From NCBI GenBank assembly GCA_051746725.1, contig JBNJFI010000016.1, positions 1 to 30,135 on the forward strand: a stretch of DNA of 30,135 bases, in the 5' to 3' direction. Numbering within the stretch: the stretch's first letter is position 1; every line of letters starts with the position of its first letter. Origin of the DNA: Fusobacteriota bacterium (GTDB taxonomy: Bacteria > Fusobacteriota > Fusobacteriia > Fusobacteriales > JBNJFI01). A program made the translations under genes and the position numbers. The notes beneath the pieces were generated by a model. That model was not told the DNA's origin. It worked only from the letters and a program-made list of their open reading frames with translations, and searched no databases. This document shows positions 1-30,135 of this stretch, in pieces.

Positions 1-58
1 AATTATTAGGTCTCATAAATCAAATAAAATAAGTAGATTAGAACTTTGCAACTAGCTA
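1..58 (+). mobile_element. Right end of a MITE-like element (truncated by window start)
   Basis: 1-58 aligns without gaps to 19876-19933 with 49/58 identities; ends in TTTGCAACTAGCTA (45-58), the terminal repeat of the copies ending at 19933 and 29562. Confidence 0.8.
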
Positions 59-17829: not shown

Positions 17830-19545
17830 ATGGACAAAAGAGTGGAAGAAAAATATAATGAATGGTTAAATTCAGATTTTTTAAGTGAAGAAGATAAACA
17901 AGAATTAAAAGATATAAAAGGAAACGAAGAGGAAATAACAGAAAGATTTTATAAAGAATTAGAATTTGGAACTGGAGGAATAAGAGGAATAAGAGGAATT
18001 GGAACTAATAGATTAAGCACATATATGATTGGGAAAGCAGCTCAAGGATTAGCCAATTATATGCTAAAAACAGATAATAAAGCCAAGGAAAAAGGAATTG
18101 TAATTGCTTATGATTGTAGAATTAAATCATATGAATTTGCTTTAAAAACTGCTTTAGTAATGGCTGGAAATGGAATTAAAGCTTATTTGTTTGAAAGTCT
18201 AAGACCAACTCCGGAGCTATCTTTTGCCATTAGAGAACTAAATACGTTATCTGGAGTTGTAATAACTGCAAGTCATAATCCACCTGAATATAATGGGTTT
18301 AAAGCATATTGGGAAGACGGAGCTCAAATAGTATCTCCCCATGATAAAGCTATAATAAAAGAAGTTGATAGCATAACGGATTTATCTACAGTAAAAGAAA
18401 TGAAAGAAGATGAAGCCAAAAAAGAAGGACTTTTAGAAATAATAGGTAAAGAGATAGATGATAAATTTATCGAAGCAGTAAAAAAACAAGTTATCAATAA
18501 AAATATTCCTAAAGATTTAGACATAGTATACACTCCATTACATGGAACTGGGAATAAATCTGTACAGAGAATTTTAGATGAAGTTGGATTTAAAAATGTT
18601 CATATAGTTAAGGAACAGGAAAAACCAGATGGAAATTTTTCTACTGTTGGATATCCTAATCCAGAAGATCCTTCTGTATTTAAAATGGGAATAGAATTAG
18701 CAGAGATAACTGGTTCAAAACTTATTTTAGCCAATGATCCAGATGCAGATAGAATCGGAACTGCAGTGAAAAATCCCAAAGGAGAATGGATATATCCAAA
18801 TGGAAATCAAATAGGAATATTATTAGCCGAATATATATTACAAAATAAAGATAATATACCGGATAATGCAGTTATTATATCTACAATTGTATCTACGCCT
18901 ATGTTAGATGTAGTGGCTAAAGCTAATAATGTCGATATAATGAGAACTTTAACTGGATTTAAATATATAGGAGAAAAAATTAAAGAGTTTAAAGCAGGAA
19001 AAATTGATAAAACTTACTTATTAGGTTTTGAAGAAAGTTATGGTTATTTGGTAGGAACACATGCCAGAGACAAGGATGCCGTTGGAGCTACAATGCTAAT
19101 AGCTGAAATGGCAGCTTATTTTGAATCTAAGGGTTCTTCAATAGCGGAAGAGATAGATAAATTATATGAAAAATATGGTTATTACAGAGAAGATATAGAA
19201 GCAGTTAAAATGGCAGGTAAGTCTGGAGCTGAGAAGATTAAAAAGATTTTATCTGATTTAAGGGAAAATGCGCCAACTGAAATTTTAGGCAAAAAAGTTA
19301 AAGTTTTTAGAGATTATCTTAAAGGTATAGAGAAAAATTTAGAAGAAGGAACTAAAAAGGATCTTACACTTCCATCATCAAATGTATTACAATTTGTGTT
19401 AGAAGATGATACACATATTACAGCGAGACCTTCTGGAACTGAACCTAAAATTAAATTTTATTTTGGAATAAATGCTAAAACAGCTAAAGAAGCAGACGAA
19501 AAAATTGAAATAACTAAAAGAGAATTTTTAAAGACAGTTAAATAA
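17830..19545 (+). CDS. pgm: Phosphoglucomutase/phosphomannomutase
   Basis: FGTGGIRG, TASHNP, DPDADR, GFEESYG, RPSGTEPKIK; ATG 17830 chosen from GGAGG spacing (TTG 17824 is an alternative). Confidence 0.93.
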   Translation: MDKRVEEKYNEWLNSDFLSEEDKQELKDIKGNEEEITERFYKELEFGTGGIRGIRGIGTNRLSTYMIGKAAQGLANYMLKTDNKAKEKGIVIAYDCRIKSYEFALKTALVMAGNGIKAYLFESLRPTPELSFAIRELNTLSGVVITASHNPPEYNGFKAYWEDGAQIVSPHDKAIIKEVDSITDLSTVKEMKEDEAKKEGLLEIIGKEIDDKFIEAVKKQVINKNIPKDLDIVYTPLHGTGNKSVQRILDEVGFKNVHIVKEQEKPDGNFSTVGYPNPEDPSVFKMGIELAEITGSKLILANDPDADRIGTAVKNPKGEWIYPNGNQIGILLAEYILQNKDNIPDNAVIISTIVSTPMLDVVAKANNVDIMRTLTGFKYIGEKIKEFKAGKIDKTYLLGFEESYGYLVGTHARDKDAVGATMLIAEMAAYFESKGSSIAEEIDKLYEKYGYYREDIEAVKMAGKSGAEKIKKILSDLRENAPTEILGKKVKVFRDYLKGIEKNLEEGTKKDLTLPSSNVLQFVLEDDTHITARPSGTEPKIKFYFGINAKTAKEADEKIEITKREFLKTVK

Positions 19546-19600
19546 TATAAACTAATGGGTATTAGGATATTTGATATATTTATTAAAGATATGAGGATAT

Positions 19601-19635
19601 ACAGAAAAAAGGAGATAAAATCTCCTTTTTTCTGT
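19601..19635. terminator. Intrinsic terminator after pgm
   Basis: 16-bp perfect stem ACAGAAAAAAGGAGAT / ATCTCCTTTTTTCTGT with 3-nt loop. Confidence 0.85.
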
Positions 19636-19755
19636 TTTAAATATGTCAAAAGCAAATTTTATATGTCGTATTATATTTTAGAAAGTTGCAAAACTAAAAA
19701 GATAAGATATCAAGTTTTCTACAGATTTATTAACAGAATTAGTTTTGGGTGATGC

Positions 19756-19778
19756 GGGCGAAGGCCCTTCGCCCTTAC
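19756..19778 (-). repeat. REP-like palindrome
   Basis: Minus strand reads GTAA-GGGCGAAG-GGC-CTTCGCCC (tetranucleotide + 8-bp GC-rich stem). Confidence 0.75.
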
Positions 19779-19816
19779 GTTTCAGGTTACGTAGGGATAA
19801 GAATATAAGTTTTTCT

Positions 19817-19839
19817 GTAAGGGCAAATGGCGTTTGCCC
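19817..19839 (+). repeat. REP-like palindrome
   Basis: GTAA-GGGCAAAT-GGC-GTTTGCCC; same architecture as the 19756 unit, opposite orientation. Confidence 0.75.
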
Positions 19840-19902
19840 GGGTGTGAGCAGTATATAAAAATGGAGGGAAGCCTTAATTATCAGGTCTAATAAATTAAAT
19901 AA

Positions 19903-19915
19903 AATCAATGGGTTA
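19903..19915 (+). promoter_or_regulatory. Candidate IHF-binding site next to the right TIR
   Basis: AATCAATGGGTTA matches WATCAANNNNTTR, preceded by an A/T tract. Confidence 0.4.
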
Positions 19916-19961
19916 CAATTTTGCAACTAGCTAGTATTATATTTGAAAGGGAGTGAGTAGG

Positions 19962-21791
19962 ATGAGTTTAACAAAAAAGTTTATGCTTATTATTTCAAGT
20001 ATTTTATTTGTGGGAATAATAGTTATAATGGGATTGGAAATTAAAAGTGAATTTAAAAATGAAGAAATTTTATTAAAGAGAAGAAGAACTGAACTTATGA
20101 ACGAAAAAAAGCAAAAACTTGAAGAATTAATAGACATGGCTTCATCTAGTATTAATAATGGGAAAACAGGAAATGGTATACCTAGTGAAAAGGAAATGAT
20201 TAAAATAATAAAAAGGTTAAGATATGGGAATGATGGTTATTTTTGGATAAACGATGATACCCAACCTTATCCTAAAATGATAATGCATCCAATATCGCCT
20301 CAATTAAATGGAAAAATATTAAATGATTCTTCATATAATGTTGCAAAAGGAGAAGTTAAAAATCTTTTTTCGGCAGCAGTAAAAGTAGCTAAAGATGATG
20401 GAGCTGGATATGTAGAATATATGTGGCCTAAACCAGGTGAAGAGGAAAATCAACCGAAATTGAGTTATGTAAAATATTTTAAAGACAAAGGTTGGATACT
20501 TGGAACAGGGTTTTATATAGATGATATTGATAAAGCTATAGCTATTCAAAGAACAGAAATCAGAAAAAGAGTGATAGATAAGATAACTTCTACAGTAATT
20601 ACTTTAGTGGGATTAATTATTTTAATTGGACTTAGTATTTATTTTTTGATAATTAATTTAATAAGAGATCCCTTGGAAAATCTAAAAAATAAATTTTTAG
20701 AAGTATCAAGGGGAAATTTAGGTGTCAGATTAGAAGTTAAAAATAACGATGAAATTGGAGAATTATCACAAAATTTTAATGATTTAATGATGAAATTAGG
20801 AAAAACAATGGAAAATATTCAAAATTTAGCTAATACAGTTAAATCTGAAAATGAGTTTTTATCTAAAAATATGGATAATCTTGTTAAAGGAAAAAAGAGT
20901 CAATATTATTCTCAAATAAAAGACAAACTAGATAATGGAGTACTTCAATTGGAAGACTATATTGAAACAGTTTTAGATAATGTACGAAATCAAACTGCAA
21001 GTACTGAAGAATCTTTAGCTGGACTTGAAGAGATAGCCACAACTAGTAAGAAAATTGAAGATTCTGCAACAAACACTTTAGCTACTTCAGAAAATGCAAT
21101 TGAAAATGCCAAAATAAGTTTTAATAATGTAGAAGAGATGACAGAAGGAATGGAAGATATAAATAAAAGTGTAAGTCGAACCAATAAAAAAATTACAGAG
21201 TTAAGTGATTTATCAGATAATATCGGAGAGATAATAGTAGCAATAAATGGAATAGCAGAACAAACTAATTTACTGGCATTAAATGCAGCAATAGAAGCAG
21301 CAAGAGCTGGAGAGGCTGGAAAAGGATTTGCAGTAGTTGCAGATGAAATAAGAAAATTAGCTGAAAAAACAAATACCGAAACAGAAAAAATAGAAAATAT
21401 AATCAAAAATATTCAAAATGAAGTAACAGAAGTTAAAGTAGCAAATAAAGAAGTAGAAGAAAATGTTGAAAATGGAATCAAATTAACTGAAACAGTTAAA
21501 GAGAACATAAAAAACATAAGAATTATAACAGAAGAGAATAACAAAAAAGTTAAGGAAATTTCTGTTTCAACTAATGAGCAATCTACAGCTTCAGATGAAA
21601 TAACTAATGCAGTTAATAGTATAACTGAAAATTCAGCACAAATAGAAGAATTAGGAATGGAAACCAATGAAGTTGCCTCTGATATAGTTAAAGTTATAGA
21701 AAATAATCTAGAGAGAATAAAAAAAGTATCGAGTATCGCTTCAGATTTAAATAAAGATGTTCAGTCGTTTAATCTTCATGATAAAAATTAA
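19962..21791 (+). CDS. Methyl-accepting chemotaxis protein (sCache_2 sensor)
   Basis: TM-sCache_2 ([35 protein letters not shown])-TM-HAMP-MCPsignal ([37 protein letters not shown]); ATG 19962 chosen from AAAGGGAG spacing (GTG 19953 is an alternative). Confidence 0.95.
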
Positions 21792-29308: not shown

Positions 29309-29333
29309 ATTATAGTTAGTTAGGAATACATTA

Positions 29334-29562
29334 TAGGTGGTTGCAAACCCTAAAAGTAAAAAACACTCAGTTTTACACAAAAAATATTAAAAATAAAAGA
29401 TAGAGATTTATTTTAAGATAAGAATATTTCAATTTTTAAGACCTTGATTGGGCAGATATGGAATCTGCCCCTACCGTGGAACTAATGGAAAGAGTTTAAA
29501 ATAATGAGTTGGAATATTTTATTGGAGGGTAATAAAAATAATTATAATTTTGCAATTAGCTA
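29334..29562 (+). mobile_element. 229-bp MITE-like element with REP-like cargo between leuC and leuD
   Basis: TIRs TAGGTGGTTGCAAAC / TTTTGCAATTAGCTA (11/15); flanking direct repeat AGGAATACATTA (29322-29333) / AGGAATATATTA (29563-29574), 11/12; last 21 bp match the 19933 end at 19/21. Confidence 0.82.
29450..29474 (-). repeat. GTAG-family REP-like palindrome
   Basis: Minus strand reads GTAG-GGGCAGAT-TCCAT-ATCTGCCC (perfect 8-bp stem). Confidence 0.8.
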
Positions 29563-29589
29563 AGGAATATATTATACAAGGAGGAATCG

Positions 29590-30135
29590 ATGGAAAAAAT
29601 AATAAAAGGAAAAGCCTATGTATTAGGTGATAATATAGATACAGATCAGATAATACCTGCAAAACATCTTGTTTATAAAATGGATGACGAAGAAGAGTCT
29701 AAATTATACGGTAAATATGCAATGTCAGGTTTACCAGCTAAAATAACTGAAAATAATGAATTTATAGAAGAAGGGAAATTTAAATCAATATATACATTTA
29801 TGGTTGCTGGAAAAAACTTTGGGTGTGGATCTAGTAGAGAACATGCTCCATATGCTTTGGAAAAAGCAGGGATAAAAGCTGTTATAGCAGAGGACTATGC
29901 AAGAATATTTTATAGAAACTCTGTAGATGGCGGGTTTATAACACCTTTGGAAACTCCTGTTAGATTATGTGATGAAATCAAAACTGGAGACGAATTAGAA
30001 GTTAATACTGAAGAGTTTACATTGAAAAATTTAACATCTGGGAAAGAATATAATTTAAAAGATTTAGGAGATGTTAAGGATATAATTGAAGCTGGTGGGC
30101 TTTTTGATTATGCCAAACAAGAAGGTATAATATAA
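29590..30135 (+). CDS. leuD: 3-isopropylmalate dehydratase / aconitase-family small subunit
   Basis: DNIDTDQIIPA, NFGCGSSREHAP, YARIFYRN, IIEAGGLF. Confidence 0.88.
   Translation: MEKIIKGKAYVLGDNIDTDQIIPAKHLVYKMDDEEESKLYGKYAMSGLPAKITENNEFIEEGKFKSIYTFMVAGKNFGCGSSREHAPYALEKAGIKAVIAEDYARIFYRNSVDGGFITPLETPVRLCDEIKTGDELEVNTEEFTLKNLTSGKEYNLKDLGDVKDIIEAGGLFDYAKQEGII

Follow-up and report, generated by a model that had tools for sequence, protein, structure and literature searches.

Small mobile elements of a Fusobacteriota genome lie in one orientation, a fixed step upstream of Shine-Dalgarno motifs

A family of small, non-coding repeats in a Fusobacteriota genome lies in one orientation and, nearly always, exactly 5 nt short of a Shine-Dalgarno motif once its target-site duplication (TSD) is counted off, and full-length insertion sequences (ISs) in distant hosts show the same geometry. 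The reading that joins these observations, and that we consider very probable, is that the repeats are MITEs derived by deletion from an IS of ~1.74 kb, moved in trans and inserted by a process anchored to the Shine-Dalgarno motif. MITEs and IS1182-like transposases are known kinds, and the element itself is of an ordinary kind; the Shine-Dalgarno-anchored, orientation-specific insertion common to these MITEs and a widespread unnamed IS clade appears to be undescribed in the literature searched. This specificity of site and orientation was not seen in the original prediction, which was made from a single stretch of 30,135 nt (here, the window).

The window contains three copies, all on the + strand. 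The first is complete (255 bp, 19679..19933) and lies between a phosphoglucomutase gene (pgm) and a gene for a Cache-HAMP-MCP protein. Its left terminal inverted repeat, TAGAAAGTTGCAAAA (19679..19693), corresponds to the transposase-distal end of the parent IS described below and its right one, TTTTGCAACTAGCTA (19919..19933), to the transposase-proximal end; these 15-bp ends are complementary at 13/15 positions. They are flanked by an exact 11-bp repeat, GTATTATATTT, at 19668..19678 and 19934..19944, of which a single copy stands in the empty-site contig described below. Five nucleotides past this TSD comes GGAG (19950..19953), the Shine-Dalgarno core of the MCP gene, with the ATG at 19962. 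The GC-rich core of the copy (19756..19839) contains one hairpin at 19756-19774 and another at 19821-19839; it varies from one subfamily to the next and is not confined to MITEs. The sole ORF of the copy (82 aa, minus strand) spans these variable cores. A subterminal GGAGGG (19863..19868) lies at a distance of 71 nt from the right end; in alignment with the parent IS it falls on a G-run of the leader/promoter region of the transposase gene. Upstream, behind the phosphoglucomutase gene, is a terminator-like hairpin, AAAAAAGGAGATAAAATCTCCTTTTTT, at 19601-19635; before the insertion only ~45 nt would have separated it from the ribosome-binding site of the MCP gene.

The second copy is divergent (229 bp, 29334..29562), with ends related to those of the first. 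It separates an aconitase-family large-subunit gene from its small-subunit partner (isopropylmalate-isomerase-type, leuC/leuD-like) and is flanked by AGGAATACATTA (29322..29333) and AGGAATATATTA (29563..29574), which match at 11/12 positions; GGAGG, the Shine-Dalgarno sequence of the leuD-like gene, again follows 5 nt past the TSD (29580..29584), with the ATG at 29590. The third is a right-end fragment (1..58), identical to 19876-19933 at 49/58 positions (84.5% over 58 nt). Because the window is a whole contig (C16), this copy is truncated at the contig start; it has GGAGGG at +17, and the gene behind it is purE, with its ATG at 87. The original prediction had delimited these same three copies, and their inverted repeats, direct repeats and degree of identity came out as it had described them.

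The family extends well beyond the window. The assembly, from an uncultured member of the Fusobacteriales (2.18 Mb in 155 contigs, the smallest listed of ~2.5 kb; 28% GC; 97% complete), contains 27 exact matches to the right-end motif TTTGCAAYTAGCTA, and a 16-nt left-end motif matches 12, 33 and 55 times at 0, 1 and 2 mismatches, compared with 0, 0 and 0-4 matches for five shuffled 16-nt controls. Profiles of the two ends (nhmmer, E<1e-3) found 32 left and 32 right ends, which pair into 22 complete copies of 176-273 bp; 9 left ends and 12 right ends remain without a partner, most of them at the edge of a contig. The copy number is thus 34-43, that is, at least 34, and with so many ends left at contig edges the family is therefore one cause of the fragmented assembly. 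Conservation is confined to the ends, TAGnnAGTTGCAAAAC and its complement, where it spans ~55 nt (left) and ~75 nt (right); the cores are unrelated GC-rich hairpin types, wholly different between subfamilies. A GGRGG lies 70-71 nt from the right end in 18/22 copies. Copies at separate loci are up to 98% identical, a value reached by copy 1 and its counterpart at C33:137-390. The earlier suggestion of a non-autonomous element abundant in the whole genome is thereby borne out: the copies, at least 34 of them, are non-coding and carry no transposase.

Two sequences found inside family members also have a wider distribution. The core hairpin pair of copy 1 (19756-19774 / 19821-19839) occurs away from MITE ends on eight contigs (C5, C119, C118, C3, C47, C34, C17 and C135), and in its copies on C12 and C75 the hairpins stand ~150 bases further apart; the pair may represent another small repeat family that sits within the MITE or was captured by it. 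A perfect TTATCCACA, the DnaA-box consensus, lies ~35-45 nt inside many MITE left ends (for example at C25:21556-21610). Ten of the 44 9-mers of this type in the genome fall within family elements, and the full-length parent IS has no TTATCCACA.

Most copies carry the signature of transposition. Among the 21 with both flanks, 18 have a TSD of 10-14 bp: four of 10 bp, four of 11, seven of 12, two of 13 and one of 14. The three copies that gave no call (C26, C85 and C115) have degraded or offset repeats, and in other material no TSD was called in 8/16 elements of a second genome of the order (G119) and 9/27 elements from metagenomes. An empty site was sought by aligning the contigs of four public metagenome runs (X1-X4) to window positions 18800-20800. 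One 244-nt contig (depth 2, run X2 only) follows 19495-19667, apart from 3 differences and 1 gap, and then runs straight on into 19934-20001 without any difference. Its joint skips 266 nt, the 255 of the element plus the 11 of the TSD, and 11 letters at the joint fit both sides; this is exactly the empty site, with a single TSD copy, predicted for 19668-19944. The other three runs gave no contig bridging this site, and where they do not cover it they speak neither way; further contigs in X1-X4 join the element to other flanks. In a search with a 2-kb query, the element part matched only this genome among 31; in the set of 187 Fusobacteriales genomes searched, no other belongs to the same taxonomic family. 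The family has been recently mobile, as shown by the empty site together with copies up to 98% identical at different loci. By every test run (inverted repeats, lack of coding sequence, TSDs, an empty site and an autonomous element) it is a MITE. Of the checks proposed with the original prediction, the motif scan with a TSD tabulation and the search for an empty allele each gave the expected result, the latter in a single contig of low depth.

We looked for the source of the transposase in the same assembly and in metagenomes. No copy with family ends exceeds 273 bp in this genome (two weak end-like matches that span 5,988 bp on C2 do not belong to the family), and in this 97% complete assembly we found no match to PF01609, PF00665, PF01548 or PF07282 and none to the candidate transposase P0001 by tblastn. 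The original prediction held that the transposase is not in the window, and this extends to the whole assembly for an enzyme of the candidate kind; a multi-copy IS of 1.7 kb could have dropped out of an assembly whose smallest listed contigs are ~2.5 kb. Scanning a metagenome collection for the left end gave at least 121 stretches, of which 80 loci were fetched; among the matches listed are many MITE copies in AT-rich contigs. Three contigs (L056, L059 and L126) contain a 1743-1744-bp element with family ends and one long ORF, L056 and L126 being 97.7% identical, and a fourth (L064) holds a full-length homologue, 89% identical, whose proximal end was not recovered. The long copy with a transposase between the same ends, which the original prediction had proposed to look for, thus exists in metagenome contigs and was not found in this genome.

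The candidate transposase, 474 aa long in its database relatives, contains the Pfam domains DUF772 (4e-15) and DDE_Tnp_1 (2.8e-6). Its best NCBIfam model is IS1182 (NF033551), whose cut-off is 270 bits and which it matches at 77; none of the NCBIfam hits at E<=0.1 is an IS4-family model. Across an alignment of 13 transposases the pattern Y-(2)-R-(3)-E-(6)-K (Y407, R410, E414, K421) is invariant or nearly so. Of the IS4- or IS1182-like enzymes named beforehand as candidates, the one found is of the DDE_Tnp_1/IS1182-like kind, below the IS1182 model cut-off. Its ORF runs from the end that corresponds to the MITE right end towards the left, and MITE right ends align with the transposase-proximal IS end over ~75 nt, a stretch that takes in the G-run at ~70 nt from the tip; the candidate parent and the MITEs have only these ends and subterminal sequence in common. 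No clean TSD is present at the three long metagenome copies (L056, L059 and L126), which may reflect chimeric short-read assembly across the repeat. We infer that this transposase would mobilise the MITEs of the present genome.

In the wider clade of these ISs (L191-L198 and other loci), the transposase leader has TGATTTTTCTCCG 60-72 nt from the IS end. This sequence is the exact complement of the stretch from Shine-Dalgarno to ATG of the transposase gene, CGGAGAAAAAATCA, with a TGGTATAAT box in between. Judged by sequence, the arrangement looks like a classical block on translation of read-through transcripts: such transcripts would hide the ribosome-binding site of the transposase gene, and those from the element's own promoter would not. 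The conserved G-run of the MITEs would be a relic, because the parent clade has this complementary device in its leader.

The same ends occur in other genomes. Within the order, they are frequent in only one other genome, G119, of another family, with 36 exact matches and 106 at <=1 mismatch; the remaining genomes have at most 4, and a reversed pattern gives 0-2. Despite its 106 end matches, G119 gave no match to the candidate transposase, and its own DDE_Tnp_1 ORFs (429 aa on C138; an IS982-like one, PF13612, on C129; a broken one on C231) were rejected as partners, as no family ends lie beside them. Two loci there are unusual in arrangement: at L026 (172-534) two elements stand in tandem, one of 143 bp abutting one of 207 bp, and at L031 (~1949) a solo end immediately precedes a secreted-esterase-like ORF. 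In a closed genome from a third family of the order (G002, L036 611-806) we found a 196-bp copy with a 13-bp TSD, TTAAAACTAAATA, and the Shine-Dalgarno sequence TAAAAGGAG behind it; this implies that the repeats are ancient or have passed from one lineage to another. Among other Fusobacteriales, single TAGATAGTTGCAAAA sites (14 regions) were considered as IS ends and set aside, being mostly promoter-like and at orthologous loci. Single TAGATAGTTGCAAAAAT sites that are conserved at orthologous loci (L038, L041, L042; L037, L040, L043) look like a -35 TTGCAA followed 16-17 nt on by a -10 box; in its letters the IS end is similar to a local promoter motif of other Fusobacteriales.

Full-length ISs were also found outside metagenomes. 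A closed Fusobacterium genome (G012) contains five intact, nearly identical ISs of 1.72 kb whose transposase is 42% identical to P0001 and scores 47 bits with NF033551 (cut-off 270). All five have a TSD, and in all five CTCC or CCTCC follows a few nucleotides past it on the transposase-proximal side, where it forms the ribosome-binding site of a divergent gene. Scanning one genome per species gave 500 relatives, mostly Clostridia, from which we kept 80 loci; 61 of these have the end motif TAGnnn(n)TTGyrAAA, 54 of them with >=35 nt of flank. In 44/54, mostly Clostridia, the opposite strand carries GGRG within +12 to +26, and several of the remainder have weaker purine runs at the same place; clean TSDs of 11-13 bp are visible at several loci. 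A DNA search of a plasmid collection with the element gave no match, and plasmid-borne homologues of the transposase (in Roseburia, Butyrivibrio and Clostridium) are annotated 'hypothetical protein', 'transposase' or not at all.

In the genome of the window itself the targeting rule has no exception among the right ends that could be scored: GGRG lies at +12 to +21 in 33/33, most often at 18. Chance would put GGRG in that range for 4.2% of positions overall and for 4.6% of those outside ORFs, and among the 17 copies that the scan also caught in reverse none had it in range. The copies in G119 follow the rule too. When the gap is counted from the TSD, it is exactly 5 nt in 17/18 elements of this genome, 6/7 of G119 and 15/17 from metagenomes (38/42 together), with TSD lengths from 9 to 14 over the same 42 elements. 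Since the gap is constant while the TSD varies in length, one cut keeps a set distance from the motif and the position of the other varies.

Could such a pattern arise without any targeting by the enzyme? Elements might insert anywhere in AT-rich intergenic DNA and survive only in one orientation just upstream of genes, for example through an outward promoter in the element or through transcription termination in the other orientation. The targets are indeed mostly real gene starts: behind GGRG, 27/33 right ends have a start codon with an ORF of >=50 aa. In addition, the right end contains a promoter-like TTATCA-16-TAAAAT on the + strand, and the GC-rich hairpin at 19756-19774 scores as terminator-like. 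Against this, promoter-like matches in the element are at chance level (2, with a shuffle mean of 2.5), and a hybrid outward promoter, in which right-end TTGCAA would pair with a -10 box in the TSD, was rejected because positional base counts do not fit it and the scanner matches are likewise those of chance. The six right ends without such an ORF include two too near the contig end, one with a long frame from ATT and one, on C38, whose target is a terminator-like hairpin, AAAAAAGGGGGCTAGCCCCC, that is merely Shine-Dalgarno-like and has no ORF start behind it; this last case speaks for sequence recognition over selection on gene function. Selection on genes, moreover, cannot yield an exact 5-nt gap in 38 of 42 elements whose TSDs range from 9 to 14; survival of favourable insertions alone is ruled out by the combination of a fixed gap with a variable duplication. 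The autonomous 1.7-kb ISs in distant hosts have an identical geometry. We therefore regard unguided insertion followed by differential survival as improbable.

A transposase of IS1182/IS1272 type might instead seek hairpins, in which case the target would be a stem-loop, its 3' arm a Shine-Dalgarno sequence by chance and the TSD the duplicated loop. IS1182 is the best family model of the transposase, and IS1272, of that family, targets inverted repeats (PMC5678879). Reconstruction of 18 empty sites argues against this: the CTCC or CCCC arm that such a stem would need occurs in the 30 nt upstream of the TSD in 0/18, and the sites fold about as well as their shuffles (mean z -0.72). IS1272 is also described as removing its target hairpin and leaving no TSD (PMC5678879), whereas TSDs are the rule here. 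Hairpin hunting is thus very unlikely. Unlikelier still, by a little, is that the repeats are not mobile at all and form a family of structured leader RNAs with a regulatory role, or of REP-like palindromic units, that recombination has spread in front of genes. They do always lie in 5' leaders in sense orientation and, in a genome of 28% GC, carry strong GC-rich hairpins. Against this reading, they are bounded by terminal inverted repeats, have flanking duplications of variable length and an empty site with one duplication copy, and a full-length IS has the same ends; the cores differ wholly between subfamilies with the ends alone conserved, and 0 Rfam families reach the gathering score anywhere in the window.

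For motif-anchored insertion we propose the following mechanism. The MITEs would be internally deleted, non-coding offspring of the ~1.74-kb IS with its 474-aa DDE transposase (DUF772 and DDE_Tnp_1), which, acting in trans, would bind the common ends, TAGnnAGTTGCAAAAC. Target DNA would be captured by way of GGRG, or of some protein-DNA feature linked to this motif, always with the transposase-proximal end towards the motif. Staggered cuts 10-14 bp apart, about one helical turn, would then give rise to the TSD; of the two cuts, the one nearer the motif would fall exactly 5 bp before GGRG, and the farther one would vary in position, 10-14 bp upstream of the first. Insertion anchored in this way places the element between the promoter or upstream gene and the ribosome-binding site and leaves coding sequence untouched. 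The genes behind the inserts would be expressed by read-through or from a promoter within the element; read-through is the simplest idea, and the promoter-like matches stand at chance level.

Probably GGRG is read by the transposase itself. The more far-reaching version of this idea is one we hold only tentatively, as something that may or may not prove correct: that a widespread, unnamed clade of single-ORF DDE ISs in Bacillota and Fusobacteriota has an intrinsic ability to home to Shine-Dalgarno sequences, reading GGAGG in double-stranded DNA and integrating 5 bp upstream of it, always in the same orientation. The reader of the motif could be a domain of the transposase or, more speculatively, an element transcript with the conserved complement (CCYCC/CTCC) found 60-72 nt in from the proximal end.

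If the enzyme does read the motif, this would account for the presence of at least 34 copies here and ~106 end matches in G119 with genes unbroken, for the fragmented short-read assemblies of these lineages, and for the tolerance of a 229-bp insert by operons such as leuC/leuD. These elements would also be a simple system in which DDE transposition that is specific for site and orientation, and needs no accessory proteins, can be tested. If the homing is intrinsic, the MITEs would be mobile 5'-leader modules placed before dozens of genes, and the enzyme would be a compact natural tool for gene-proximal insertion in a defined orientation. At present, the NCBI annotation pipeline labels the plasmid-borne homologues of this transposase 'hypothetical protein' or 'transposase'. 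In a full-text literature that lacks most subscription journals and ISfinder/TnPedia, we found no description of Shine-Dalgarno homing by an IS or a MITE, and likewise no paper on MITEs in Fusobacterium.

Comparison with known systems shows which features are familiar. Known bacterial MITEs of IS origin include Correia/CREE of Neisseria, RUP of pneumococcus and MIC231, from IS231. Like them, the present elements are small, non-coding, intergenic and numerous, with TSDs and with terminal inverted repeats common to an autonomous IS. They differ in their long and variable TSD (10-14 bp), fixed orientation and 5-nt Shine-Dalgarno offset, and in having a parent transposase from an unnamed IS1182-like clade. 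Elements of the IS4/IS231 subgroups make TSDs of 10-13 bp and encode transposases with the Y-(2)-R-(3)-E-(6)-K (YREK) signature. The parent clade resembles them in a TSD of about one helical turn, in DDE_Tnp_1 and in the spacing of these residues; unlike the IS4 family, it matches no IS4 NCBIfam model at E<=0.1, has an N-terminal DUF772 of the IS5/IS1182 type and has ends that begin with TAG.

The IS1182 family is closer. Its members and the parent IS have in common DUF772 with DDE_Tnp_1, the best NCBIfam model, a length of ~1.7 kb and a protein of ~470 aa, as well as structure- or site-selective insertion into intergenic DNA (PMC5678879). IS1272 targets palindromes or hairpins, a trait of some IS1182 members, in contrast to the 0/18 hairpin targets here, and the present elements make TSDs rather than replace their target (PMC5678879). 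In a genome survey, IS1182 members are reported to be over-represented between convergent genes (PMC9208149); the present clade, at gene starts, occupies the opposite setting to that of the surveyed members. The parent transposase also stays far below the IS1182 model cut-off, at 77 bits (47 for the G012 copy) against 270.

Site selection as such has precedents. ISs that target REP sequences are reportedly site-selective (PMC1525189). Members of the IS1202 subgroup reportedly abut XerCD sites (bioRxiv 10.1101/2022.12.17.520857). Tn7 inserts site-selectively at attTn7. The present elements resemble all of these in having a fixed place and orientation beside a short conserved non-coding host sequence, and insertion at such a place acts as a safe haven. 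Unlike other site-selective elements, they have as their landmark a ribosome-binding motif, which stands at most genes and thus offers thousands of targets per genome, and their parent is a single-ORF IS without an evident accessory targeting protein.
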